Counted from the first letter of the stretch, positions 52 through 25,845 are shown. The stretch is DNA of 64,000 bases from Clostridia bacterium (GCA_900765095.1 CAAFRB010000098.1:7887-71886), one strand, 5' to 3'. Program-made: numbers and translations. The notes: generated from the sequence alone by a model not told the origin.

Positions 52-729
52 ATGCGTAAGTTTAGAAGTATGTTCAACAGGTTTGGCTATTTCATGGGGT
101 CCGCAACCGAGAACTTTTCACAGTTCTTTTTGGTGTCGATTTTGATGTTCTTTTACGTTTTGGCTTTCAAGTCTGACTATTTGATAATGAGCAAGTACTT
201 TTGGTATACGGCATTTTCGTTTGCTATGGTTGTGGTTATTCTGCCCTCAGTTTCCTTGAAAATCTTACAATCGAAGAAAGTTTCTTCGAAGGTCAAGAAG
301 GTTGTTAAGAAGGTGTTTGTGGCAATTAACTTGATACTGGTTGGAGCATATATGTTCATGTATCCAGTAGTGGGGGTCATTGCAGTTCCTTTGGGGGTTG
401 CATTGTATATCTTTATGCTTTGCTTCTTTTACTGGTTTAGTGATCACCGTTATCCGGGGTTGTATGCTGGGAAACTAGAGAAGCTTTTTGAACGATTTGG
501 GCACCTGGTCGCATTGTTTATGTGGATCTTTTTCATTGGATCCATATTTACAATGTGGTACGTTTTTTTCGGTGTCGTGAGTACCTATTTCGTGATTTTG
601 GCGTCAGTATTGCTTATTGTTCTCTTCGTGATTTGCGGTGCTTACGCATATTATCCGAGAATTTTTTCTACCGAAGATGTTCTGTTCTTCAAAATTGAAG
701 AACCGGCGTTGCCTGTGTGTTTTTTCTAA
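52..729 (+). CDS. Hypothetical polytopic membrane protein; GC (~40%) clearly above neighbourhood
   Basis: 225-aa ORF with RBS aaggag upstream; several hydrophobic helices rich in F/W/Y; codon usage GC-richer than adjacent host genes. Confidence 0.5.
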   Translation: MRKFRSMFNRFGYFMGSATENFSQFFLVSILMFFYVLAFKSDYLIMSKYFWYTAFSFAMVVVILPSVSLKILQSKKVSSKVKKVVKKVFVAINLILVGAYMFMYPVVGVIAVPLGVALYIFMLCFFYWFSDHRYPGLYAGKLEKLFERFGHLVALFMWIFFIGSIFTMWYVFFGVVSTYFVILASVLLIVLFVICGAYAYYPRIFSTEDVLFFKIEEPALPVCFF

Positions 730-779
730 GCACGATATTTTGAACCTTCTAAATGCTGAAATAAGCATTTAGGGGGTTC

Positions 780-917
780 ATTTTTATACAATAGGAAAGA
801 AACAAATTTGCAACCTTTTATGTATCAATTTTCTTTCCTATTGTATAAAAAAACTTTAATTTATGCGGGAGATTTTTATCCTTTTAGGTCAAAAGAATGA
901 AAGAAAATTATGAAATG
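780..917 (+). repeat. Intergenic structured repeat element, copy A (module 1 intact, module 2 with internal deletion)
   Basis: 18-bp inverted repeat TTTTATACAATAGGAAAG...CTTTCCTATTGTATAAAA around a 35-nt spacer, then ttaatttatgcgggagattttt... matching copies at 18573, 35862(-), 60575 and 20155. Confidence 0.65.
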
Positions 918-931
918 AATATATTTTAATT

Positions 932-2102
932 TTGTTAATAGAATGGTATAGGGTGATGTTTGTGAAAATATTGAGGTATGGTTCTACAGGAATTGATGTA
1001 GAGTTATTGCAAAGCACATTAAAGAAAATAGGTTTTTACAATGGAAAGATTGATGGAATTTTCGGGAATCAGACACAAGACGCAGTGTACAATTTTCAAA
1101 GAGAGTTTGGGATAAAAGCTGACGGTGTTGTTGGAGAACAGACTTGGAATAAACTGAAGCCATATATAAATGGAACGGTTGGCAATATTGTTCCAACAGA
1201 TATGAGTTATCCTTACAGAATAATGATGATGAACATAAACTCTTTGAAAAATAAGTATCCGTTTATCGTTGTTGGAAACTATGGCGAAAGTGTTCTAGAA
1301 AGAAAAATTCCGTATATAAAGCTTGGTGTTGGGGAAAAGCAAGTGTTTTATAGTGCTTCTATGCACGCAAACGAATGGATAAACTCAGTTGTCATGATGA
1401 AATTTGTGGAAGAGTATGCAATTGCTTATGAGAATGATGGAAAGCTATTAGATAGAACCATAAGAGAGTTGTATAATGATGTGTCAATATACATAGCACC
1501 CATGGTAAATCCAGATGGCGTGGACTTAGTAACTGGGGATTTAGATATGAATCTTATAGCGTATAGAAACGCGAAAACAATAGGAAACAACTTCCCAAAC
1601 ATTCCATTTCCAAGTGGTTGGAAAGCTAATATACTTCGGGGTAGATATAAATTTACAATTCCCGGCAAATTGGATATTAGCACGAGAAAATAAATTTTCA
1701 CAAGGCTTTGTAAGACCTGCTCCGAGAGATTTTGTAGGATACGGTCCACTTACTGAACCAGAATCACTTGCAATATACAATTTCACATTAGCGAATGATT
1801 TCAAGCTTATACTTGCATATCACACACAAGGCGAAGTTATATTTTGGAGATATTTAAATTTGGAGCCAGATAATGCTCAAAGGATAGGAGAAGAATTTGC
1901 AAAGATAAGTGGATATACATTAGATGATGTAGTAGATACAGGAAGTTATGCTGGATATAGAGATTGGTTTATACAAGATTATAGAAGACCAGGATACACT
2001 ATAGAAACTGGAAGTGGCGTAAATCCGCTTCCTATAGAACAATTTGAAAAAATATATAATGATAATATAGGAATATTAATAACTGCACCATACAGTGTTT
2101 AA
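932..2102 (+). pseudogene. Peptidoglycan-binding domain / M14 zinc peptidase (gamma-D-glutamyl-L-diamino acid endopeptidase-like), disrupted by a +1 frameshift
   Basis: N-terminal PG_binding_1-like motif (GIFGNQTQDAVYNFQREFGIKADGVVG); HANEW zinc motif; GVDINLQFPANW (M14 signature) continues in the other frame from ~1584; two overlapping ORFs 932-1693 and 1614-2102. Confidence 0.65.
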
Positions 2103-2154
2103 TCTATAAAGTTTGTAGCAGAGCACTGTAAGGCGGTTTGACGTAATAAATTAT

Positions 2155-2183
2155 TTGACAGCTAAAGTTTATCCTTGTATAAT
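2155..2183 (+). promoter_or_regulatory. Consensus sigma-A promoter (TTGACA-17-TATAAT)
   Basis: TTGACA at 2155-2160, 17-nt spacer, TATAAT at 2178-2183. Confidence 0.5.
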
Positions 2184-2265
2184 TAGATGCGTGGTGATGT
2201 TTTTGCAGATTTTGTGGAAAGTAATGTGCAAAATGTTACAAATTCGTTACTTTATTTATTGTATA

Positions 2266-2297
2266 AAAAGGCGACCTTGTTATGGTCGCCTAATTTT
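2266..2297 (+). terminator. Hairpin GGCGACC-ttgttat-GGTCGCC followed by uaauuuu (terminator or attenuator-like)
   Basis: 7-bp perfect GC-rich stem, short U-rich tail; sits ~85 nt downstream of the consensus promoter and just before the start of the next CDS. Confidence 0.4.
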
Positions 2298-2317
2298 GAT
2301 ATATGGAGATATTGTTT

Positions 2318-3160
2318 ATGGATTATGAAACTTTAAGTGAAAAAATTAGTTTGATTCAAGAAAAGATTTGTAATGATGATTCAGACTTATTAAGAGCAAT
2401 GTATAGATACGCAAGTCAAAAATATAGTTTGGTATGTCCCCAAAAGGTTGTAAAATCATCAGATTGTGTGAGTGAGGGAAAAATATTTTTAAATGTTGAT
2501 AATATTTCTTTTATTGAAATATGGAACACAAATATGAGAAATAAAGTCAATGCAATATTAGAAGCGATATCAGAAGTGGAAGTAGAACGCCTAGATAAAA
2601 AGATGTTGCATGAAATTATGATGGAAAAAGCTAATGAAAAAAATAGTAAAATAAATGATTCTGATAAGATTAAATTAGATGATATTATCAAGGAATTTCT
2701 TGCTATGGAGCAGGTAAGGGCTAATGATGTTTTGTATGTATGCGATGAGCTATCTAATGATAAAATCTTTTTTATCAACGAGTTTGAAAAGTTTTTAAAA
2801 GCGTTGGAATTAGGAGATAGCAGGAATAAATACATATATGATATGGTTTGTGAAGAACTAGAAAACAATTTCTTAAAATTTAATTTTTGTAATTTTAAAA
2901 ATGATAAGTGTACATCACAACGTCATAAAAACTTTTTTTCGAATAATTATCCTTATTCAAGCACAGATGGTTGCTGTTTTAAAATAATTAATAAATGTCA
3001 GCACAACAATAAGGATGGAACGTGTAAAGTGAAGTGTATTTCCTGCAAGCTTTTCATTTGTCCTTACTTGAGTGCAAGGGGTATCCGGATACTATGCGTC
3101 AGAACTTTTGCTCCTAAGAGCATTTTTTACACCAAGGCAAAGAAGAATACTTGTAAATAG
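2318..3160 (+). CDS. Hypothetical protein with Cys-rich C-terminus
   Basis: ORF with GGAG RBS 9 nt upstream of ATG 2318; C-terminal 80 aa contain >12 Cys (CCFKIINKC...CKVKCISCKLFIC); no recognisable family. Confidence 0.45.
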   Translation: MDYETLSEKISLIQEKICNDDSDLLRAMYRYASQKYSLVCPQKVVKSSDCVSEGKIFLNVDNISFIEIWNTNMRNKVNAILEAISEVEVERLDKKMLHEIMMEKANEKNSKINDSDKIKLDDIIKEFLAMEQVRANDVLYVCDELSNDKIFFINEFEKFLKALELGDSRNKYIYDMVCEELENNFLKFNFCNFKNDKCTSQRHKNFFSNNYPYSSTDGCCFKIINKCQHNNKDGTCKVKCISCKLFICPYLSARGIRILCVRTFAPKSIFYTKAKKNTCK

Positions 3161-3370
3161 CTTTTTCGAGCCAGAAAGTTATATATTGAATAAGCTTGAA
3201 AAGTACTCTGTTAGAAAATAATGTAAAAAAAGTAGACATTTTTATCGAATTATGTAGACAAAAAGAGAAGATTATGGTAAAATAACAATGTCGTGAGGAA
3301 TAAAGTTCCTCGAATGAGAATAAAAATACATTAAGAAATTAAGAAAAATGCAAATGAGGGGGATAAGAAA

Positions 3371-11060: not shown

Positions 11061-12102
11061 AAGAGTAATGATCGGAATGAGTGGAGGAGTTGATAGTTCT
11101 GTTGCGGCATTCTTACTAAAAAATGAAGGTTATGAAGTGATTGGAGCAACTTTGGAGTTATTTGCTGGAAGTAGCTGTTGCAATATTGATACATACATAG
11201 ATGCAAAAAACGTATGCAATCAACTTGGTATACCTCATTTTACTTTTAATTACAAAGACGAATTTAGAAAGCATGTAATTAATGATTTTATATCTTGCTA
11301 CGCAAATTGCAAAACTCCTAATCCTTGTATAGAATGTAACAAGTACATGAAGTTTGGCTTTATGTACGAGAAAGCAAAAGAATTAGGTTGCAATTATATT
11401 GCAACAGGTCATTATGCAAAAACTGAATATAGTGAAAAATATGGCAGATGGGTATTGAAAAAATCTAAATCGTTAAAAAAAGACCAGAGTTATGTTTTGT
11501 GGAATATACCAAAAGAATTGATTGAACATGTATTATTTCCGTTAGCTGATTACGAAGAAAAAGAAGAAATAAGAAAGATTGCTCGTGACAATAATTTAAA
11601 GGTGGCCAATAAACCAGATAGTGAAGATATTTGTTTTGTTCCTGATGGTAATTATAAAAAGTTTTTAGAAAACAACTCTGATATAAAACCAAAAGAAGGT
11701 AACATCGTAGATACAAAAGGAAAAATACTTGGAAAGCATACAGGGCTATATAATTACACAATTGGACAAAGAAAAGGACTTGGAATTTCAAATCCGGTTC
11801 CACTTTTTGTAGTTGGATTTAACAGTGGAAAAGATGAAGTTATAGTTGGAGAAGAAAAAGAATTATACAAGAGTGAAATTGAAGTTGATGAGATTAACTT
11901 GATTTTGGTTGATGAAATTAAAGACTGGATGGATGTTGAGGTTAAGACGAGATATTCATCAAAAGTTGCGAAAGCAAAAATAAAACAAGAAGATAATAAA
12001 ATAAAGGTTAAGTTTGAAGAACCACAAAGGGCGGTAACCCCAGGACAATCGGCAGTGTTTTACGTTGACGATATAGTGCTTGGTGGAGGAAAAATAATAT
12101 AA
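11050..12102 (+). CDS. mnmA: tRNA-specific 2-thiouridylase MnmA
   Basis: PP-loop IGMSGGVDSSVAAFLL; start ATG 11050 with GAGGA RBS, overlapping sufU stop by 11 nt. Confidence 0.9.
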   Translation: MENKRVMIGMSGGVDSSVAAFLLKNEGYEVIGATLELFAGSSCCNIDTYIDAKNVCNQLGIPHFTFNYKDEFRKHVINDFISCYANCKTPNPCIECNKYMKFGFMYEKAKELGCNYIATGHYAKTEYSEKYGRWVLKKSKSLKKDQSYVLWNIPKELIEHVLFPLADYEEKEEIRKIARDNNLKVANKPDSEDICFVPDGNYKKFLENNSDIKPKEGNIVDTKGKILGKHTGLYNYTIGQRKGLGISNPVPLFVVGFNSGKDEVIVGEEKELYKSEIEVDEINLILVDEIKDWMDVEVKTRYSSKVAKAKIKQEDNKIKVKFEEPQRAVTPGQSAVFYVDDIVLGGGKII

Positions 12103-12204
12103 ATTTTTTAAAAAGTGATGGCTATGAAATATGTGATTTCAATCGCTTGAAAGAATTTTCTGGAATTTTGTAAAAAAATTTCCAGGAGATTTTTGGAAAA
12201 AAGG

Positions 12205-12233
12205 TTGACAAAACTTAAATCACATTATAAAAT
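12205..12233 (+). promoter_or_regulatory. Sigma-A-like promoter of first island gene (TTGACA, ~16-17 nt, TATAAA/TAAAAT)
   Basis: TTGACA 12205-12210; AT-rich -10 region 12226-12233; followed by ~130-nt leader with 7-bp complementary segments ttgcatc/gatgcaa. Confidence 0.45.
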
Positions 12234-12363
12234 ACGACTTGCTGAAAGGATATTGCATCTATCCAATCAAATAATTTTGATAGGGGTGAGTTTTAATTTT
12301 CCAAGTTGATGCAAGTCGGTAGTAACTAAGAACGACGTACTAGAAGTGCAGGGAGGAAATGTT

Positions 12364-13125
12364 ATGAAGAAGTTTTTTGCTGTTGTTTTGGCGATGGTGA
12401 TGGCTCTGGCTGTTTGCTCGTATGCATTTGCGGACGGGTCTTCCGGTGACCAGGTTCACAACGGCGACCTGCCGTATACTTCCGAACAGGATGTCAAGAT
12501 TACCATTACCGGACTTCACAATGGTGGCGATGATGACGGGGCTCGGTTGCCTTCTGAATATCATGTCCGTGTGAAGTGGAACATCGTCAATGGCGTCTAC
12601 AACGCGACCGCTACTGATGGTGGCGATACTGGTTTCCAGAACTTCACCTGGGATTGCGTGAAACTGGAGTACAAGGTGAACAGTGTTATCGGCACGACTG
12701 GTGCTGATGTGCGTGAAGGCAACTGGGCTACTAAGCCTGCTGTGGCGTTTGAAGTCACCAATGCATCGACTCCAGATCTCGAGATTTATGTGACCGCCAC
12801 GCTTAAAGGAACCAACGCATGGGCGAGCCTGCTTAAGGCTGCTACTCTGGAAACCCAGAATGCTGGCATTATCAATCGAGTGGTCAATCCTGTTGAAATT
12901 CCTAACATGGGTACCGGTGTCGATTCCTATGACAAAGGTCATGTCAACTCGCAGAATGTTTTCGCTTATACCTATGTGCTCAACTGGGATTACGATGCTC
13001 TGAACGCGTCTGCACTGGCGGCGTATAAGGCGGGCACTGGTTCGCAGGAGCTCACGAACACTTTCGTTGTTACCGTTTCTGCTGGTACGGCATCTACTCC
13101 TGAACAGACGCCTACCATTGACTGA
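12364..13125 (+). CDS. Secreted protein (signal peptide) homologous to the C-terminal domain of the 1380-aa protein; GC-rich foreign island gene 1
   Basis: RBS gggagg then ATG 12364; MKKFFAVVLAMVMALAVCSYAFA signal peptide; motifs WDCVKLEY and LNWDYDALNA shared with WNCVKLQY / LKWDYDKLNA at 18.2-18.5 kb; GC ~50%. Confidence 0.7.
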   Translation: MKKFFAVVLAMVMALAVCSYAFADGSSGDQVHNGDLPYTSEQDVKITITGLHNGGDDDGARLPSEYHVRVKWNIVNGVYNATATDGGDTGFQNFTWDCVKLEYKVNSVIGTTGADVREGNWATKPAVAFEVTNASTPDLEIYVTATLKGTNAWASLLKAATLETQNAGIINRVVNPVEIPNMGTGVDSYDKGHVNSQNVFAYTYVLNWDYDALNASALAAYKAGTGSQELTNTFVVTVSAGTASTPEQTPTID

Positions 13126-13209
13126 TGGAAAATGTATGAATAAAAATAGCTGAGGTGCAGTAGTTACGGTTTTAGCGTAGCTGGAGAACTGTAATACTAG
13201 CTTTGGCGT

Positions 13210-13241
13210 GGGGTATCGATAAAAAATCGATACCCTTTTTG
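13210..13241 (+). terminator. Rho-independent terminator
   Basis: perfect hairpin GGGTATCGAT-aaaaaa-ATCGATACCC followed by TTTTT. Confidence 0.7.
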
Positions 13242-13297
13242 CTAATTTTTAAAAGTAGTTTCGATCAAGGTCTTTTTTACATAATTTGTAAAGAAGG

Positions 13298-13326
13298 TTG
13301 ACATATTGGCACAAACAATGTATAAT
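13298..13326 (+). promoter_or_regulatory. Perfect consensus sigma-A promoter (TTGACA-17-TATAAT)
   Basis: TTGACA 13298-13303, 17-nt spacer, TATAAT 13321-13326; ~130-nt leader to ATG 13459. Confidence 0.55.
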
Positions 13327-13458
13327 TCTTCTGCAATTGAATAATTTACATAATAATCGAAAGGAGAGTTTCTTTTGACTGAGAAAGGTGGTTGAAGATT
13401 GGCTCTAACATGGTTTCAATGGCAACATAACTTTAACGACTAGAAGGAGGAAAAGACC

Positions 13459-14379
13459 ATGAAAAGTAAGCTATGGATTGTTGCTCTTTTTCTTGCTCTG
13501 ATGATGCTCGGTTCTATTGCATTCGCAGTGGAAGTGCTTCCTATCAACGGAAGTCATGAAGCCAAGGAAGTACCGGAAGAGCCGATTGTCACGCTTGATT
13601 TTAGGGCAGTGCAAATCGGGGTTCGTGATAACCTGGTGGAAAATGATGAACTGGAAGATCACGGAACGGTCTGGGTTGAATGGAATGGTAAAGCGTATGC
13701 TTTGTACGGTTGTACGACAGCAGAGATTAACTATACCAATCCTACTAGATCCAATATCGGCGTAACGTTGTCGATGGCAATTTTTGATGCAGATTTGATG
13801 ACTTACTTTGGGACGACTTACAGGAGTGAGAGTGAGCAAGTTGAACTTGCAAAATCGGGTTTGGCTGCACTTAGAAATGGCATTAAGCTTTCTTATGCTT
13901 CTAAGCTGTTGGAAATCACAAACTACTTTGACGGTATGACTGATGAAGAAGTGAGTAATCTCACTGGTGATGAGCTTGTAAGCTTGCTTGCTAGCAAAGG
14001 ATTCCTTTGTCTGAGCGAAGAAGAGCTTCGCAAGCTTGAGGAAGATGATTTGATTCAGCTTACTGAGAAGCAACGCTTGGAACTTGCTGAACTAGGTGAT
14101 TACAATCCTAACGAGTACTATCGACTGATTGGCGAGGATGGACTGATTAATCCTGGATATGCGATTTATGAGATTGATCTCTATACGCTTCCTGGAAGAA
14201 AGGTGCTTCCTAAGGGTGAGTACAAGGCGGTTTTCGTTTTGAATGGGTATGCTGCGGATAAAAATGAGATGTCTGATTTCTTTATCCACCTTCCCATCGA
14301 ATTGATCATTCAGAAAGATTTGCCTGAAGACTTGCAAAAAGAATACTCTGTGAGCCTGGCGGTTCGTGTCGACCAGTGA
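13459..14379 (+). CDS. Secreted hypothetical protein, island gene 2
   Basis: RBS ggaggaaaag; signal peptide MKSKLWIVALFLALMMLGSIAFA; GC ~45%; no family recognised. Confidence 0.7.
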   Translation: MKSKLWIVALFLALMMLGSIAFAVEVLPINGSHEAKEVPEEPIVTLDFRAVQIGVRDNLVENDELEDHGTVWVEWNGKAYALYGCTTAEINYTNPTRSNIGVTLSMAIFDADLMTYFGTTYRSESEQVELAKSGLAALRNGIKLSYASKLLEITNYFDGMTDEEVSNLTGDELVSLLASKGFLCLSEEELRKLEEDDLIQLTEKQRLELAELGDYNPNEYYRLIGEDGLINPGYAIYEIDLYTLPGRKVLPKGEYKAVFVLNGYAADKNEMSDFFIHLPIELIIQKDLPEDLQKEYSVSLAVRVDQ

Positions 14380-14400
14380 TGATTAAAGGAGGGTAAGCCT

Positions 14401-17400
14401 GTGAAAAGGAACTCTTTCTTGTACAGAGGGTTCATCTTGTTGCTTGCCGTATGCGTCTTGATGGCTTTGATTCCTGAAAAGATGTACGCGGAGGAGTATA
14501 ACGGTCTTGCTACGATGACGGATTTACCTCCGGAAGATGTCGTAGTCAATGTTGTCGAAAACGAAAAGAACGACGATGACAATGCGTTTATTTCCAACGC
14601 AACGCCTGAAGTTACGGCAGCGCCTACTGCAGAAGCGACGCCTGAAGTTACGGTAGCACCTGCTATTGAGACTCCTACTGCGGAGGCAACGACTGAAGCG
14701 ACGGTAACGCCTGCTGCTGAAATGCCTACTGCAGAAGCGTCGGAAGTATTTGCTACCGAAGCACCTACTGTGGAGGCACCTGCAACTGCAACGCCCGAAG
14801 TTACTGCTGAACCTAGTGAAGAAGTAACAGTTGAATCTACGCTGACACCGGACATTGAACCTGTGACTGGGCCTGACAATTCCGATAATGAGGAGCAAGA
14901 AATCTACGATCAGATGCTAATGCTGGGAGCGTACAACGTTGCAACTAATGACGCAGGTCAGACGGTGTACGCTGTGGTATGCGATGGCAGCTTGCTTGGT
15001 AAGTACACGCCCGGTGAAATCGTGAAGCTGACTGTTCCTACCAAGGACGGTTATGATTTTATCGGCTGGAAGGTTGTGTGCTCTGAGCAGGTAAACATTA
15101 CTGGTAACCAGTTTGTAATGCCTAGTGCACCTGTCGGTATTGTTTCCCATTGGAAGGCGCAAACGAATCAGGTTGCGATTTACTACCTCACGACTAGCGG
15201 AACTAGCTTGTATGAAAGCAAGTTCGCGGATGTGAAGGCAGGTTCTTCTTTTACTCTGGATTCCAGTTATTCTCTTCCTAGCATTGATGGCTACATGGTG
15301 ACCAGTATTAAGCATAATGGCAGCACCTACACGAACATTTCTGATTACCGGAACATTATCCGTGTTGATAGTGTTTTGAAAGACGAAGTGTTTGAAGTGG
15401 TGTATGAGCCTATTGATACCTCTTACACTGTGAAGCATTACAAGCAGGATTTGAGTGGCAATTATCCAGAAAATCTGATGGAATCTGAAACGTTTGATGG
15501 TAAGTACGGACGGGTTATTAACATCAAGAATCACGTAAAGAACAACTACGTCGGTTTTAACTGGAGAGGTTTCGTTGATGACGAAGCAACGTATATTACG
15601 TTGTCTAGTAGTAACAACGAAATCAAGATTTACTACTCTCGTGCACAGTACAGACTTTTCTATGTTGATGGTACTTCTACTTCGTGGTATGACGTGAAGT
15701 ATGAGGAAACTGTTAATATCAGTGAGAAGTTTGGTACGCCTCCGCATCGTGTTGATGCCACGTTCGTCGAATGGACTACGAGTGATACGACCATTCAGAT
15801 TGAAAATGGTGCTTTCACGATGCCTACACATGACGTGGTTTTCAATTCCAAATGGGCTCCTAATGCTACTGCCGAGTATCACATCTACTATTATATCGAA
15901 ACTACTTCGTCTGCAAACAGTTGGACGGCAAGTAATCACAAAAACAAAAACGCTGATCTCAATCCTGTGAATGATTCGGATTTCCAGTTTCATGGAAGTG
16001 TGAAGCTTGTCGGTAATACCAATGCAGTTGTTGGTAACGATGTGGTTATCCAAAATGTTAGTGGTGTGGTTGATACTGCTCACTTCACGTATTCCAGAAT
16101 GGATGAGAATGTAACAATTAATCCTGATGGAACTACGGTTGTGAAGGCGTATTACAGAAGAAATGTTTACTACTACGAGTTCAGGTATCAGAATAACAGA
16201 AACAAGCTTTATACTTGGGATGGTCATAATGAAGGTAGACTCTATTACAAGTATGAAGCTGACCTGACTGATGCCGAGATTCCCAATTGTTGGCCGTACG
16301 ACGATGCTGGTGGTGCGATTCAGTGGGTTCAGGACAATAATGGTGCTGCTGGTGCTGCGATTTCTGCACCTACCAGTGCTAATCTTGGCTACAATTACAC
16401 TATTTACCACAATGGCAATGCGACTAACAAGATGGGTTTGAACTACCTAAAGCAAAACATTTTTGGTCAGTATGCTAGCGATTCTGAACGTGGACTTCTG
16501 GTACAGTTCTTTTACGGTTACGACCAAAAGCTGAGCGTTACGCTTCGTGCTTATCGTTGCCCGGAGGGATTTTCGTTTGACTATTACGTGACTGATGCGG
16601 GAAAGAGTGCTTCTATTCCGCCTGTTAGTCAGTGGCCCAGCAATAATGGTACACTTGGTTTCTTGATTGAGGACAGCAGATGCAATTGGGCAACTATTTA
16701 CTTCAAGAGGAATACGTATGTCATCTCATTCAGTAACGGTGCAAGAGTGGTCAGTATGAGTCCTGCGGTGTATTACCAGGCGAACCTTCCTAGTGAAGCT
16801 AATGTGCCTACTATTGAAGGATTGGAAATTCCTGATGCATTTAAGACAGGTCACGAATTTGCTGGCTTTGAAGATTCTAACACCAGTGCACTGTACGAAG
16901 GTAGCACTCCTGCAGAAGCCTACGAGAAGTTCATTCAAGTTAATCCTACGATGCCTGCTCGTGACATTCTTCTTACTGCCGAGTGGAAGCTAAAGACTTA
17001 CAAGGTGAACTTCTACTACGACGCTACTAAGGTTGGAACGAGTGAAGCGCTCATGTCTGAACAGATTGTCGAGTATGGCAGGCTGATTGCCAATTCTCCT
17101 GATGCACCTACCAAAATGAACTATGTTTTCGCTGGTTGGTACTACAGAGATGCTGCTGGAAATGAAAAGCCATGGATTTCTGATGCCACCAGAGTTACCG
17201 ACAACATGGATATCTACGCCAAGTGGACTGCCAGTGAACAGATTATCGTGGATATCACTGTTATTCATAATTACTATGAAAGCGGTGTAATTGCTGATGT
17301 CGTCACTGATACGAAGCAGGGTGTAGTAGGCTCTACTGTTACCATTGAAGCATTGAATAGGGCTGGTTACTTCCCTGATTTTGCAATGCAGAACTACGAA

Positions 17401-18543
17401 GTGAAAGAAATGGACAACACGGTTGTGTTTAACTATTACCCTGTCGAGGAAGTTGAATACACTGTGTACTATGTGGATGCTAACGGAAACAATCTTATTC
17501 CTCCTGTGGTTAAGCCCACCAAGAATCTGATTGTCACCGAAAACTACGTCTACATTCCGTTCTGCACTCCGCGAGTACTTGCACAAGAACTTCGTTTGAC
17601 TTCTGATGCTGAGAAGAATGTCATCACTTTCGTGTATGATGTTATTGGCACCACGAGCTACACGATTAAGTACTGGCAGGAACAACTGGATGGTAGCTAC
17701 CTCGAAGTTGAAGCCGATAGGCTTGAAATTAAAAACGTTAGTTACTACACGGAAGTGTCTGTGACTAATGAACAGATGAAGGACTATCCTGGGTTCACCT
17801 TCAATGGTGGAATTAGTAACACTAGTGCTTGGATTGTTCCGAACGAAGACGTTGTCTTGAACCTTTACTATGACCGTCTTGAGTATACCGTGAGCTACGT
17901 GTATAGCTCCACGATTGCAGGAGTTACTATGCCTACTTTGCCGGCTACCCAGACGTACAAGTTTGGTGCACCTGTGCAGGTTGCTAGTAACAACATTGTG
18001 ATTGCGGAAGCTCCGCAGTACGAATTCAAGGGTTGGTATCGACAGGGTGATGCAACCGAGGTTGAAATCACCAATTTCGACATGCCGAATCATAACATCG
18101 TGCTGTACGGTTACTTCGTAGTTTCCGATTACTACATTACGGTTGACTGGACTAAGGAAGATGGTTCGTATCATGGTGGAACTTACTCTTGGAATTGTGT
18201 GAAGCTCCAGTACGAACATGACACGACCTTGGCTGGTTGGAGTACTGTGCCTTACGTGAAGTGCGTGATTAAGAACTATGGTTCCAAGGCCGTTAATCTT
18301 GACTTTAGTGCGAAAACGGATAAATGGGCAAAGTACTTTGAAGCTGGTTCTAATCCGTTTGAGAACATTCCTACCGTTCGACTTGAACCGGGGGCAGAGT
18401 ATGTCTTTGAGTTCAGAAGCGACGTGGAACTCAAGTGGGATTATGATAAGCTAAATGCCGAGGCTACTAATGTTGCTATTGGTGCTACTGCACCGACAGA
18501 GGAAACCAACAAGTTTGAACTGAAAATTACCAAGGTTAATTAA
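14401..18543 (+). CDS. Giant secreted surface protein (1380 aa) with T/A/E/P-rich linker and multiple Listeria-Bacteroides (Flg_new-type) repeat and Ig-like domains; island gene 3
   Basis: GTG start after RBS aaggaggg; signal peptide; repeated GW...AKW-type segments (YEFKGWYRQGDATEVEITNFDMPNHNIVLYGYF; YVFAGWYYRDAAGNEKPWISDATRVTDNMDIYAKWT; YDFIGWKVV...SHWKA); no LPXTG; C-terminal ~150 aa homologous to the 12364-13125 product. Confidence 0.8.
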   Translation: MKRNSFLYRGFILLLAVCVLMALIPEKMYAEEYNGLATMTDLPPEDVVVNVVENEKNDDDNAFISNATPEVTAAPTAEATPEVTVAPAIETPTAEATTEATVTPAAEMPTAEASEVFATEAPTVEAPATATPEVTAEPSEEVTVESTLTPDIEPVTGPDNSDNEEQEIYDQMLMLGAYNVATNDAGQTVYAVVCDGSLLGKYTPGEIVKLTVPTKDGYDFIGWKVVCSEQVNITGNQFVMPSAPVGIVSHWKAQTNQVAIYYLTTSGTSLYESKFADVKAGSSFTLDSSYSLPSIDGYMVTSIKHNGSTYTNISDYRNIIRVDSVLKDEVFEVVYEPIDTSYTVKHYKQDLSGNYPENLMESETFDGKYGRVINIKNHVKNNYVGFNWRGFVDDEATYITLSSSNNEIKIYYSRAQYRLFYVDGTSTSWYDVKYEETVNISEKFGTPPHRVDATFVEWTTSDTTIQIENGAFTMPTHDVVFNSKWAPNATAEYHIYYYIETTSSANSWTASNHKNKNADLNPVNDSDFQFHGSVKLVGNTNAVVGNDVVIQNVSGVVDTAHFTYSRMDENVTINPDGTTVVKAYYRRNVYYYEFRYQNNRNKLYTWDGHNEGRLYYKYEADLTDAEIPNCWPYDDAGGAIQWVQDNNGAAGAAISAPTSANLGYNYTIYHNGNATNKMGLNYLKQNIFGQYASDSERGLLVQFFYGYDQKLSVTLRAYRCPEGFSFDYYVTDAGKSASIPPVSQWPSNNGTLGFLIEDSRCNWATIYFKRNTYVISFSNGARVVSMSPAVYYQANLPSEANVPTIEGLEIPDAFKTGHEFAGFEDSNTSALYEGSTPAEAYEKFIQVNPTMPARDILLTAEWKLKTYKVNFYYDATKVGTSEALMSEQIVEYGRLIANSPDAPTKMNYVFAGWYYRDAAGNEKPWISDATRVTDNMDIYAKWTASEQIIVDITVIHNYYESGVIADVVTDTKQGVVGSTVTIEALNRAGYFPDFAMQNYEVKEMDNTVVFNYYPVEEVEYTVYYVDANGNNLIPPVVKPTKNLIVTENYVYIPFCTPRVLAQELRLTSDAEKNVITFVYDVIGTTSYTIKYWQEQLDGSYLEVEADRLEIKNVSYYTEVSVTNEQMKDYPGFTFNGGISNTSAWIVPNEDVVLNLYYDRLEYTVSYVYSSTIAGVTMPTLPATQTYKFGAPVQVASNNIVIAEAPQYEFKGWYRQGDATEVEITNFDMPNHNIVLYGYFVVSDYYITVDWTKEDGSYHGGTYSWNCVKLQYEHDTTLAGWSTVPYVKCVIKNYGSKAVNLDFSAKTDKWAKYFEAGSNPFENIPTVRLEPGAEYVFEFRSDVELKWDYDKLNAEATNVAIGATAPTEETNKFELKITKVN
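14596..14850 (+). repeat. In-frame tandem low-complexity repeat (36-nt period, ATPEVT(A/V)APxxE) encoding a T/A/E/P linker
   Basis: acgcctgaagttacgg recurs at 36-nt spacing; protein ATPEVTAAPTAEATPEVTVAPAIETPTAEATTEATVTPAAEMPTAEA. Confidence 0.5.
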
Positions 18544-18548
18544 AAACA

Positions 18549-18578
18549 CGGGCTGCCCTTACTAGGGCAGCCTTTTTA
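18549..18578 (+). terminator. Rho-independent terminator of the island
   Basis: GGGCTGCCC-ttacta-GGGCAGCC then TTTTTA. Confidence 0.7.
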
Positions 18579-18730
18579 TACAATAGGAAAGTAACAGATT
18601 TGCAACCTTTTATGTAATTATATTCTTTCCTATTGTATAAAAAACTTTAATTTATGCGAGAGATTTTCTCTTTTCAGTCGAAAACTCTCGAGGGTCGAAA
18701 GAATGAAAATCGAAGATTTTCATCTTTCTT
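18573..18730 (+). repeat. Intergenic structured repeat element, copy B (full length, modules 1+2)
   Basis: TTTTATACAATAGGAAAG-35 nt-CTTTCCTATTGTATAAAA, then ttatgcgagagattttctcttttcagtcgaaaactctcgagggtcgaaagaatgaaaatcgaagattttcatctttc; ~93% identical to reverse-complement of 35862-36016. Confidence 0.7.
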
Positions 18731-18915
18731 GATGTGGAGAAGTGTGAAAGTTACATGTTTTTTTGAAAAATAGTATATTTATTTGTTGTGTTGCACTATA
18801 ATAATTAGAGTAGTGAGAGGGGAGGAAATCTTTGATTACCTGTCTTTCAATCATCGAGTGTTTTCATCTAACGGCAAGAAAATCTCGAATTTATAAAAAA
18901 CTAAGGAGGAAAATT

Positions 18916-23749: not shown

Positions 23750-25361
23750 CTAAATCCATTTTCTCGAAATTTTAGGTTCTGTGCGCTTTTTCTTTGGCTT
23801 TAAGAAAACGGGGCGATATTCTTTTTTCCATATTGGAGAGGAGAATAAATCGTCTTTCAATGCGCCTTTTCTTAGTGGTGAAATAGGGGTTAGATAAGAA
23901 ACACCAAATGAAGTCACACTGCATAAAGCACAAAGATGTACAAATACTCCCATTGCAATTCCAAAGAATCCTGCAAAACCTCCTAAAAAGATATAAACAA
24001 ATCGCATTATTCTAAAACCATAGCTTAAAGAAAAGTTTGCTATACTAAAAGTGCTTATTCCAGTTAAGGCAACTACGATTATTAATATAGGGCTAACAAC
24101 ATTAGCACTAACGATTGCTTGACCTAATATTAAGGTACCGACTATACCGAGTGTTGGTCCAACTGGAGCTGGTGTTCTAATGCTAGCTTCTCGTATTATT
24201 TCAAAAGCAATTTCCATAATCAAAAGTTCAATCATCATAGAAAAAGGAACTTTTTCTCTTGTGCCGTTCTATGGTAAATAGCAAGTCTGTTGGAATCATT
24301 TCTTGGTGAAAATTACAAATTGCTATATAAAGTCCAGGCAAAAAGATAGAGAAGAATATTGCGGGAAATCTAAATAGTCTTATTAAAAGTGAGTAAGGAA
24401 ATCTAATATATGAATCTTCAGATGAGTGTGTGAAATCTGAAAATACTGCAGGTACAACCAGTACATTGCTACTACCTTCAACAATAATAGCCACCCTGCC
24501 TTCCATTAGGTGTGATGCCACCTTGTCGGGGCGTTCTGTACTCAATATTAGGGGATCTATTAGATAAGTTTTATCTTCAATTAATTGCATCAGTTCGCCA
24601 CTATCTAGTAAATAATCTATATCTATAGAATTAATTCTGCGTTTTACTTCGTTTATAATAGATTCATTTGTGATTGTTGAAATATAGGCCACTGCGCATT
24701 TCGTTTTGCTTTGACTTCCGACTTCAAGTGTTTCGAAAATCAAATTTTCATCTTTCACAAATTTTCGTATTAATGCCGTGTTAGTTCTAAAACTTTCTAT
24801 AAAAGCCTCCGAGGGTCCATCTATATTCATTTCGTTTTCTGCTTTTGAAACACTTCTAGAAGGCGGTTTTTTTACATCACATATTATAGCAATATTAAGT
24901 GTGTCAACGAGCAAAGCAGCATCACCATGCAATACACTTGTCACTAAATCATCATACTTTTCTGCAAATGTAACTTGTGATTCAGATAACATTTCGCCAG
25001 ATATGATATCTTTTATATTCAGTACATTCTTTTGCTTTAAAACGCTATTTTGTTCGTTTGACGAATTGTATTTTTTCATGAGTTGTTTTATTAGATGACC
25101 ATTTATCAAGTTTGAATCAACCATGCCGTCGTAAAATATTAGTAGAGCATTATATTTGTTTTCATTTATATTGATATCAAAGTATCTAAATTGAATGTCG
25201 TTAGAAATAGGGTAATGAAATATCTTTTGCAGGAATTCAACATTTTCTTTGAGCGCACTATTTATATCTTTTTCTTTACTTAATGTGGGGGTGAAAGTAT
25301 CATCACTTATTCTAAAATCATTTTTTGGTTTAGAGGGCTTGAATTTAAAAAAGTTTTTCAT
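23750..25361 (-). pseudogene. Spore germination protein Ger(x)A with +1 frameshift near 24265
   Basis: N-terminal GerA domain ORF (to 24228) and C-terminal TM ORF (23750-24238) in different frames; junction ...LFTIE | GTREKVPFSMMIELLIMEIAFEII matches conserved GerAA region; start ATG 25361 with GGAG RBS. Confidence 0.7.
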
Positions 25362-25447
25362 AATCAATCTCCATTCTTTTAAAGTATTTTGTGTAAATTT
25401 ATAAAAAAAATACATATATAGTTTATTTTGCACATTATTCAAATTTC

Positions 25448-25476
25448 TTGACAATGGTGCATATTTGATAGATAAT
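25448..25476 (+). promoter_or_regulatory. Sigma-A promoter (TTGACA-17-GATAAT) for the ylbF-like gene, divergent from the ger operon
   Basis: TTGACA 25448-25453, 17-nt spacer, GATAAT 25471-25476. Confidence 0.45.
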
Positions 25477-25509
25477 CTACTATAGAGAAAAATTTTTAGG
25501 AGGTTTGTT

Positions 25510-25845
25510 ATGAATCCATACGATAAAGTACATGAATTAGTAGACGCTATAAAAGAAAGCAATGAAGTTAAGGAATACTTAGCTTTAAAGGAAGAGTTAT
25601 TTAAAGATGAAAATAATAAGAAAATGATAAAAGAGTTTAGAGATAAACAAGTGGAAGTTCAAAGCCTACTTATGCAAGGTAAAGAAGCCGAAAAAGAAAA
25701 AATCGAAAAACTTCAATCTTTGTATGCAATATTAGCATCTAACGTGAAAATAAAAGAATTCTTTGATAAAGAAGTGGCTTTTGATGTAATGCTTTCAGAT
25801 GTTTACAAAATTATTGGTGAAGCATTAAAAGACATTATAGAATAA
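25510..25845 (+). CDS. YlbF/YmcA-family regulatory protein
   Basis: 111-aa helical protein, YlbF-like (UPF0342) pattern. Confidence 0.6.
   Translation: MNPYDKVHELVDAIKESNEVKEYLALKEELFKDENNKKMIKEFRDKQVEVQSLLMQGKEAEKEKIEKLQSLYAILASNVKIKEFFDKEVAFDVMLSDVYKIIGEALKDIIE

Follow-up and report, generated by a model that had tools for sequence, protein, structure and literature searches.

Among the described systems that come closest to the locus reported here, a three-gene cassette of secreted proteins in a 64-kb stretch of DNA from a Clostridia bacterium (64,000 nucleotides in all, hereafter the window), are the Csc/WxL clusters of Lactobacillus and Enterococcus, for which PDB 9i1y (WxLIP) was the only entry met in our search results. 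Like those clusters, the cassette encodes secreted proteins that are free of a sortase motif, its small and its very large protein share a C-terminal domain, and a partner of ~300 aa has a hydrophobic N-terminus. Unlike them, it gave no WxL, DUF916 or DUF3324 match and encodes neither a DUF916/DUF3324 partner nor a small LPXTG protein corresponding to CscD. To our knowledge, the shared N-terminal strand motif, long leaders, consensus promoters and codon anomaly of the present locus are not Csc features. The giant protein of the cassette, p1380, resembles the Listeria-Bacteroides (LB) repeat proteins of the InlB type (PF09479, PF18998, TIGR02543) in its long, repeat-built extracellular stalk, but differs from them in having just four to five recognizable repeats, a new terminal domain and a fixed three-gene context.

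Donor-strand fibers, as exemplified by chaperone-usher pili (FimH/FimA) and by TasA/TapA of Bacillus, offer a further comparison, as the cassette combines a small, predicted beta-sandwich protein bearing an N-terminal extension with a putative adhesin that carries a homologous domain, the small protein has its own, stronger expression signals, and one related locus (L112) holds tandem paralogs of it. In contrast to those fibers, the cassette lacks genes for an usher, a chaperone family, a sortase or a SipW-type peptidase, and neither membership in the pilin, TasA or Peptidase_M73 families nor a chaperone, usher or signal peptidase gene was found. Coherent gene sets that keep a codon profile departing from that of their genome are known from bldA/TTA control in Streptomyces and from stress regulons tied to tRNA modification, and such a departure implies that the choice of codons bears on the timing or manner of translation. 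The cassette is like these in its departure from the genomic profile, but here the whole A-ending class is avoided, in an AT-rich genome, in three long genes and across species. Nothing specific on the cassette, or on a comparable codon phenomenon, was found in the literature.

The first-pass annotation of the window had read the interval as a foreign island, and we argue that this reading should be replaced by that of a conserved cassette with selected, anti-host codon usage. That the atypical composition is no mark of recent import is the best supported of our claims. On balance, and with moderate confidence in the account as a whole, we regard the interval as a long-resident three-gene cassette of one clade of uncultured, ~30%-GC gut Clostridia.

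Cassette layout and relatives

The cassette is placed between a suf-nifU-mnmA block and an Fe-ADH gene (adh). A sliding GC profile gave a plateau of 0.40-0.51 over ~12250-18500, flanked by values of 0.24-0.35 (upstream) and 0.29-0.37 (downstream), and no other stretch of the window is as GC-rich, the rest lying at ~0.27-0.38. The GC content at third codon positions (GC3) of p253, p306 and p1380 was 0.53, 0.42 and 0.46, respectively, compared to a mean of 0.24 (sd 0.05) for 52 other open-reading frames (ORFs) of the window. The GC-rich interval in AT-rich surroundings noted in the first-pass annotation was confirmed (40-51% vs about 30% GC), as was the absence of an integrase, transposase or tRNA (no mobility ORF in 12100-18900 and no tRNA in the window). 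The three secreted proteins that it had proposed were also recovered, with signal peptides called by visual inspection and from N-terminal helices in AlphaFold2 (AF2) models rather than with a dedicated predictor. The features of the cassette are as follows:

12205..12233, + strand: promoter P1 of p253 (TTGACA, 17-nt spacer, TAAAAT; 11/12 consensus positions)
12240..12363, + strand: p253 leader, ~124 nt, from the alignment across cassettes
12364..13125, + strand: p253 coding sequence (ORF call), 253 aa, small secreted protein
13210..13236, + strand: intrinsic terminator of the p253 unit, 11-bp stem then T run
13298..13326, + strand: promoter P2 of the p306-p1380 operon (TTGACA, 17-nt spacer, TATAAT; 12/12 consensus positions)
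13333..13458, + strand: p306 leader, ~126 nt, with invariant alignment columns
13459..14379, + strand: p306 coding sequence (ORF call), 306 aa, exported protein
14401..18543, + strand: p1380 coding sequence, 1380 aa, giant exported protein, with a GTG start and an AGGAGG Shine-Dalgarno sequence
18109..18540, + strand: C-terminal shared domain of p1380, residues 1237-1380, homologous to p253 residues 59-239
18550..18573, + strand: terminator of the p306-p1380 operon, an intrinsic hairpin kept elsewhere via compensatory changes

Since the p306 stop and the p1380 GTG start are separated by 21 nt, with no promoter in the gap, the genes form two transcription units, not three. The consensus promoters, the leaders of about 124 and 126 nt and the terminators described in the first-pass annotation were all found, but a reading of one unit per gene was not upheld.

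By exact-protein look-up, at least nine metagenome contigs from the human gut carry this locus in its present context, and sequence searches returned small families of 82 (p253) and 49 (p306) clusters, in which neither a Pfam domain nor a named source was present. An HMMER profile search of 1.84 billion representatives gave 12 clusters at E < 1e-10, followed by a weak tail of small secreted proteins. The fetched contexts hold an ordered set consisting of a ~250-aa gene, a ~307-aa gene and then a 1200-1550-aa Flg_new protein (no giant was seen in L114). Small-protein orthologs across cassettes are termed p250, with p253 denoting the window copy, and L-numbers denote compared loci. The sites of these loci and their protein identities to the window, given as p250/p306/giant, were:

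L097: same mnmA-adh site; 80/84/79%
L104: after pgsA-ligA; 72/83/82%
L099: between a NUDIX gene and ftsH; 60/57/70%
L112: other site; two tandem small-protein paralogs, P0022 and P0029; 63% and 60% (p250)
L101, L102, L106, L107 and L113: after tyrS-HMA; about 52/51/30%
L114: small gene and a 323-aa p306-like gene, then radC (438-3270); 43% (p250)

The triad was found at no fewer than five different chromosomal sites in related AT-rich gut Clostridia, making for a surface cassette that is widespread in uncultured Clostridia of human and animal guts. Every cassette has 0.40-0.52 GC inside flanks of 0.27-0.33 GC, and GC-rich surroundings were not seen for any sampled family member, the most distant having 43% identity. 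No homologues were found on viral contigs, on plasmids or in PHROGs, PADLOC gave none for the three proteins, and a BFVD fold search returned nothing at E <= 0.001. In L112, the paralogs P0029 (5652-6371) and P0022 (6788-7510) precede a p309 gene and a giant gene. L114, on a short contig, is the most divergent member and has no giant gene adjacent, a layout in which the two small genes may be the conserved core.

Codon usage of the cassette

The CTG, ACG, CCG and GCG codons to which the first-pass annotation had drawn attention are enriched in the cassette, but the main feature of its codon usage is the near-absence of codons ending in A. Codon tables indicated that the cassette has lost A-ending codons and has not undergone a uniform GC shift, with T-ending codons as common as in the host and with GAA and GCA spared. 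The loss extends over ATA (cassette 0.00, host 0.49), TTA (0.01, 0.36), TCA (0.01, 0.26), CCA (0.04, 0.63), ACA (0.05, 0.52), CAA (0.24, 0.89) and AAA (0.23, 0.67), and a secondary T-to-C shift is present in two-fold boxes (TAC 0.59 in the cassette vs 0.24 in the host). Third-position bases across seven cassettes were A 0.13-0.18, C 0.15-0.24, G 0.21-0.25 and T 0.40-0.47, compared to A 0.30-0.45, C 0.07-0.09, G 0.09-0.18 and T 0.36-0.46 in host flanks. The fraction of A at third positions (A3) is graded in a fixed order of genes, from p250 (0.04-0.10) through the giant (0.13-0.16) to p306 (0.18-0.22), and within the window p253 has the strongest codon bias (A3 = 0.08). Across 1415 ORFs of at least 150 aa from the window and 116 clade loci, mean A3 was 0.454 (sd 0.115) and the lowest values all belonged to cassette genes, while no genuine gene with a comparable A3 was present among the 1340 ORFs outside cassettes. 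One window ORF with low A3 (52-729) was judged to be spurious and antisense, being T-rich and hydrophobic, with no Pfam match, in a region of AT skew -0.2.

The anomaly is confined to coding sequence and is specific to codon position 3. Intergenic spacers within cassettes have a GC of 0.26-0.34 and an A content of 0.34-0.39, with pooled host spacers at 0.30 and 0.36, and the transcribed leaders and internal spacers of the window (A 0.33-0.36, GC 0.34-0.38) are not depleted of A. Frame-independent depletion of UA, CA or ACA was not found in the cassette, as ACA was present at 1.04 times expectation and, across the junction of codon positions 3 and 1, UA and CA were not depleted relative to the host; frame-independent motif avoidance of the kind associated with MazF (ACA) or with UpA/CpA lability was accordingly rejected. 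Translational selection for high expression was also rejected, as the one glycolytic gene examined, GAPDH of a related species (L008), prefers exactly those A-ending codons that the cassette avoids (ACA 24/27, CCA 12/14, AAA 17/19, CAA 8/8).

Polymorphism within species follows the same pattern. Synonymous third-position single-nucleotide polymorphisms (SNPs) comprised 36 A/G vs 108 C/T changes in cassettes and 73 vs 65 in flanks (Fisher P = 1.7e-6), and the cassette A/G share was also below the 0.38-0.46 expected from site availability (P <= 7e-4). This fits a continuing removal of G-to-A changes. Polarised substitution counts, in which the cassette had an excess of AT-to-GC changes, were set aside as an artefact, the excess in the host flanks being larger (57 vs 8), and no conclusion on the direction of GC change is drawn, since these counts are conditioned on unchanged, hypermutable G/C sites.

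Taken together, the conserved, graded and frame-specific loss of A3, the opposite preference of the relative's GAPDH and the depletion of A/G SNPs lead us to infer that the anomaly is most simply explained by selection at decoding, at the level of the tRNA or the ribosomal A site. A general selection in favor of the cheaper bases U and C at synonymous sites in transcribed DNA has been put forward (PMC4844684), but such selection would leave G unraised. Adenosine-rich codons in the A site are cut in a frame-dependent manner by toxins such as HigB (AAA) and YafQ (AAA) (PMC4931118), and the dependence of these toxins on frame and on A-site adenosines matches a frame-specific A3 depletion with no frame-independent avoidance. 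The match is incomplete in that GAA and GCA are not avoided here, and a toxin is a lead only. Avoidance of A-ending codons might uncouple translation from host U34 tRNAs or shield the mRNA from a nuclease of the HigB/YafQ type, the surface structure then being made under stress, a shift in tRNA modification or toxin activation, a mechanism that we put forward as speculative and rather improbable.

Lineage-specific genes that stand beside cassettes and encode no signal peptide share the codon signature, namely L099 8493-9167 (A3 0.09, GC3 0.60) and L101 16685-17011 (GC3 0.55; also in L100, L102, L106 and L107). These neighbors hint at a larger co-regulated or co-transferred unit.

Site history and competing explanations

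Atypical GC and codon usage, the compositional hallmark of an acquired island, is present in the interval and is routinely taken as a sign of horizontal transfer. In the present case, the anomaly recurs in different species and at different sites, and it ends at start and stop codons. Because it is conserved, bounded by coding sequence and restricted to one codon class, we favor selection on synonymous sites over foreign origin. Mobility hallmarks are missing, with no integrase or transposase ORF in 12100-18900, no tRNA in the window and no flanking direct repeats, and the cassettes cease to be homologous to one another immediately before the -35 hexamer and at the terminator. At the mnmA-adh junction, only the cassette or a deletion remnant was seen, and an empty junction was found neither in 80 related species nor in metagenome contigs. 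The spacers inside the cassettes are host-like and do not have a donor composition.

The first-pass annotation had suggested asking whether mnmA and adh are adjacent in relatives. In a comparison of 80 related species, adh was within 10 kb of mnmA in 0/80 and the DNA downstream of mnmA differed in nearly all of them. Because synteny breaks recurrently on the 3′ side of mnmA, the adjacency question cannot be answered as posed, and, with mnmA-downstream DNA almost never the same across the 80 species, the cassette is located at a recurrent breakpoint. Synteny with L006 (97% nt identity) and L007 (91%) stops exactly at the mnmA stop (window ~12096-12103), after which both loci (L006 from 3659, L007 from 6763) continue with a 220-aa ORF, PP2C, O-methyltransferase, peptidase U32, ychF, spoIID, ROK and murB. 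The presence of the cassette at this site in the window and L097, and its absence there from L006 and L007, requires loss, relocation or recombination.

Divergence at four-fold sites was compared for pairs of loci that share a site. Between the window and L097, whose flanks are 87% identical at the nucleotide level, it was 0.24-0.45 for seven flank genes and 0.39-0.48 for the cassette, which does not indicate an acquisition more recent than host speciation. Since cassette and flanks are comparable in this respect, the cassette was probably present before the hosts of the window and L097 split. Between L101 and L113, the flanks gave 0.19-0.25 and the cassette 0.38-0.43, a ~2x difference. The two pairs fit long co-residence, though the second does not fit strict co-divergence, and the rate of evolution of the cassette equals or exceeds that of its flanks.

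A recent insertion between mnmA and adh of donor DNA of ~45-50% GC, still unameliorated, is to our judgment the least probable account of the interval. The composition step is sharp at both ends, the nearest relatives, L006 and L007, have no cassette at the site, and a polymorphic element resembling a miniature inverted-repeat transposable element (MITE) lies at the right edge, all as such an insertion might leave them, but L097 carries an ortholog at the same site with synonymous divergence matching its flanks, the anomaly recurs at other sites in cassettes down to 30-50% protein identity, and no GC-rich context is available as a source. Mobility genes, tRNA, flanking repeats and an empty junction are also missing. 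The foreign-island claim of the first-pass annotation is not supported, given conservation at five or more sites, host-like internal spacers and a loss of A that is specific to position 3 with T3 equal to that of the host. More weight, although it is still unlikely, belongs to a cassette that is cargo moving among AT-rich gut Clostridia from an unsampled reservoir, its codons kept by re-import or allele replacement and not by selection. Movement of this kind would account for the multiple chromosomal sites, for the L104 cassette, at a different site, being as close to the window as that of L097, for the signature in adjacent cytoplasmic genes, for the doubled L101-L113 divergence and for the same MITE directly after the terminator in the window and in L104. 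It is opposed by the lack of a reservoir among the 1.84 billion representatives and the sampled contexts, by the absence of the cassette from viral contigs and plasmids, by host-like spacers, host-level T3 and the conserved A3 gradient of the genes, and by the within-species depletion of A/G SNPs. That the composition is a mutational by-product, either of strand-asymmetric deamination under high transcription or of GC-biased gene conversion at a hot spot, is very improbable, only a shade less so than recent insertion. Consensus promoters do suggest high transcription, C/T SNPs exceed A/G SNPs three to one in the cassette, and the locus recombines, as its natural deletion and allele differences indicate; gene conversion and transcription-linked mutation were nonetheless rejected on the host-like spacers and leaders, which are transcribed and retain their A. 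Moreover, C3 rises, opposite to the effect of cytosine deamination on the coding strand, the loss depends on codon position and codon family (GAA and GCA spared, ATA and TTA abolished), and the gradient tracks gene identity and not position in the transcript.

Several observations weigh against a long-resident cassette under codon selection. The codons that the host prefers were judged from GAPDH of a single related species, which is a thin proxy, and the excess of C/T over A/G polymorphism could stem from transcription-linked cytosine deamination of the non-template strand. The signature-bearing cytoplasmic genes of L099 and L101 are explained equally well by a larger mobile unit, and the L101-L113 divergence by allele exchange or a faster rate. 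The lack of the cassette at this site in L006 and L007, the nearest mnmA relatives, together with the variety of sites, means that some movement or rearrangement has occurred. Selection is our interpretation of the pattern. If that interpretation is correct, the cassette is a natural system in which to ask why a cell keeps a gene set off its own preferred codons. Should the speculative tRNA or nuclease mechanism given above also hold, the cassette would represent a codon-class-wide regulatory device in a gut anaerobe, tied to an undescribed family of surface fibers or adhesins.

Secreted proteins, leaders and variation at the locus

The p253 protein has a signal peptide (residues 1-23, by inspection) and an N-terminal extension with the conserved motif DLP..(D)VKITI. 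The first-pass annotation had proposed that the C-terminal domain of p1380 is homologous to this first protein of the cassette. BLASTP aligned p253 residues 59-239 with p1380 residues 1237-1377 at E = 1e-9 and 25% identity, and the match between the giant C-terminus and the small protein recurs in every examined cassette with both genes (L097, L099, L101, L102, L104, L106 and L107), in agreement with that proposal. Using family alignments, AF2 predicted a confident beta-sandwich at ~60-240 of p253 (mean pLDDT 83), with residues 24-60 at low confidence in the monomer model (pLDDT 51-77). A lone conserved cysteine is present in each sandwich (WDC or WNC). An N-terminal motif is also common to p250 (DLPYTSEQDVKITITGL) and the giant (TDLPPEDVVVNVVEN) in all aligned cassettes, in the general form DLP..V-x-I/V-x-I/V, and is followed by acidic or low-complexity sequence.

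Neither p253, p306 nor the p1380 C-terminus matched Pfam or NCBIfam, and the shared domain and p306 have no relatives in Pfam, in the PDB or among named proteins, their predicted folds being generic beta-sandwiches. Pfam found no SLH, CWB2, WxL, LysM, GW or SH3b anchor, and 42 family members scanned at E <= 10 gave no anchor family. The possibility raised with the first-pass annotation that the shared domain is a known anchor was not realized; by these tests it is not SLH, CWB, WxL or LPXTG. When used as the query in a word-indexed search, the isolated C-terminal 156 aa of p1380 returned just two proteins, one of which was a route to the chimera P0062 described below. On this evidence the shared module, a predicted beta-sandwich of ~140-180 aa, is novel, and the cassette defines two unnamed protein families besides. 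A set of secreted metagenome proteins of 180-260 aa (P0139-P0146 and ~50 weak hits) has the motifs YxIxVxW ... W(D/N)xxxLxY ... VTNxS and no Pfam match, and the beta-sandwich may define a broader, uncharacterised superfamily.

The p306 protein, which belongs to a family with no name, has an N-terminal signal or anchor helix in the AF2 model, followed by a beta-sandwich interrupted by a helical insert at ~110-210 (pLDDT 86), and Cys85 (YGC) is invariant in the family. In p1380, a signal peptide (1-30) is followed by the N-terminal motif EEYNGL..TDLP..VVVNV, a T/A/E/P linker (~60-160) that includes a 51-bp tandem repeat of 2.3 copies (14621-14738), a B-repeat stalk and the C-terminal shared domain. 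The stalk matched PF09479 Flg_new (59.5 bits, gathering cut-off 27), TIGR02543 (53.6 bits, cut-off 20.95) and PF18998 Flg_new_2 (35.4 bits, cut-off 23.6). Pfam recognized three Flg_new stretches and one Flg_new_2, a custom HMM added residues 1162-1219, and an iterative HMM for internal repeats clearly recovered just 867-941 and 1162-1219. The linker and LB repeats given in the first-pass annotation are thus present, but "many" repeats overstated the four to five that are recognizable. Its statement that no LPXTG anchor is present agrees with a regular-expression search of the three proteins, which found no C-terminal LPXTG and only LPYTS at the N-terminal residue 36 of p253. As the linker and the ~1050-aa stalk separate the two modules that the giant has in common with the small protein, it looks like a small-protein subunit that has been split by the T/A/E/P linker and B-repeat stalk.

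From this anatomy and motif resemblance, we propose a surface complex or fiber. All three proteins would be exported by Sec and would be held together non-covalently at the cell surface by the shared module, with the abundant small protein as the bulk subunit of an array or fiber, the giant joining as its adhesive component and p306 acting as an assembly or anchoring partner; separate promoters would serve the small protein (P1) and the p306-giant operon (P2). The giant is a plausible host- or glycan-binding adhesin, most of which has been deleted in natural strains. Against this proposal, the donor-strand and fiber idea draws on motif resemblance and the signal peptides were judged by eye. 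A competing possibility is that the shared domain is a non-covalent cell-wall anchor comparable to WxL, in which case p250 and the giant would bind peptidoglycan independently of each other and p306 would correspond to WxLIP/CscA. The cluster logic is the same, with one C-terminal domain common to a small and a large secreted protein and a ~300-aa exported partner encoded alongside, and the LPXTG motif is missing, as would be expected of such an anchor. The 42 members gave no WxL, DUF916 or DUF3324 match even at E <= 10, and the linker of the giant is N-terminal, beside the conserved motif, an arrangement in which a wall-spanning linker would leave the C-terminal domain distal. We consider the wall anchor a serious rival but the less likely one, while allowing it more room than any of the explanations of origin weighed above.

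The leaders are much more conserved than coding synonymous sites. In orthologous cassettes, the -35 hexamer of P1 and an upstream AAAAAGG stretch are kept, and both hexamers of P2 are invariant in 9/9 aligned cassettes. The first ~70 nt of the p250 leader (12240-12310) hardly vary between cassettes of 60-100% protein identity, even where cassette synonymous sites are saturated. In the p253 leader, a Shine-Dalgarno-like GGGGTG/GGAGGTG lies ~80 nt upstream of the true Shine-Dalgarno sequence (~80-95 nt before the p250 start), complementary TTGCATC and GATGCAA segments are present, and RNAalifold gave 13 pairs, two of them compensatory. The p306 leader has the conserved motif GAAAG-n-AGTTTCTTTTG (GAAAG..TTTCTTTTG) at 13370-13390. 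No riboswitch or other known RNA was recognized in the leaders, which had zero Rfam matches, and the single-sequence fold of the p253 leader was unexceptional in stability (z = -0.43). The p250 and p306 leaders could be mRNA-stabilizing or regulatory elements, and that of p250 resembles the 5′ mRNA stabilizers of Gram-positive bacteria.

A natural deletion of the cassette is represented by P0062, a 212-aa protein in which p253 residues 1-96 are fused in frame to p1380 residues 1264-1380. Its gene occupies the mnmA-adh interval on three contigs (L109-L111), each from an independent sample and with 92.6-97% identity to the window:

L109 2905-3543, L110 443-1081 and L111 419-1057: P0062 loci, equivalent to window 12364-~12650 plus ~18190-18543
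12646..12672, + strand: left crossover zone of the 5.5-kb deletion, FTW-DCVKLEY codons
18179..18205, + strand: right crossover zone of the same deletion, YSW-NCVKLQY codons

The junction is in the shared W(D/N)CVKL codons, where matches between the two genes are short and imperfect, the longest exact shared word (12 nt) being elsewhere. An assembly artefact is unlikely, because the genes at the junction share just these short, imperfect matches. The 5.5-kb deletion arose by recombination between the homologous p253 and p1380 domains. P0062 shows the homology to hold at the level of DNA and the locus to undergo recombination, and it shows that some gut populations can do without p306 and the stalk.

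The repeat at the right edge is outside the cassette and is present or absent among strains:

18577..18731, strand not assigned: MITE-like repeat, 155 bp, with an internal inverted repeat

The first-pass annotation had described a terminator followed by a copy of a ~160-bp repeat, and both the element and its other copies in the window (35858-36015 on the - strand, 781-876 and 60574-60656) were found. It is absent from L086, L090 and L091, which are of the same species and have a gap before adh of 219 bp vs 372 bp, and L007 carries it as an insertion that L006 lacks. In L104, from another species and another site, it occupies the identical spot just after the cassette terminator, which suggests a preference for terminator hairpins. 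Elsewhere in the window, a GerA-family germination gene (23750-25562, - strand) is present as two overlapping ORFs (155-162 and 377-395 aa) in all strains, with varying boundaries, and may be a frameshift or a split gene.

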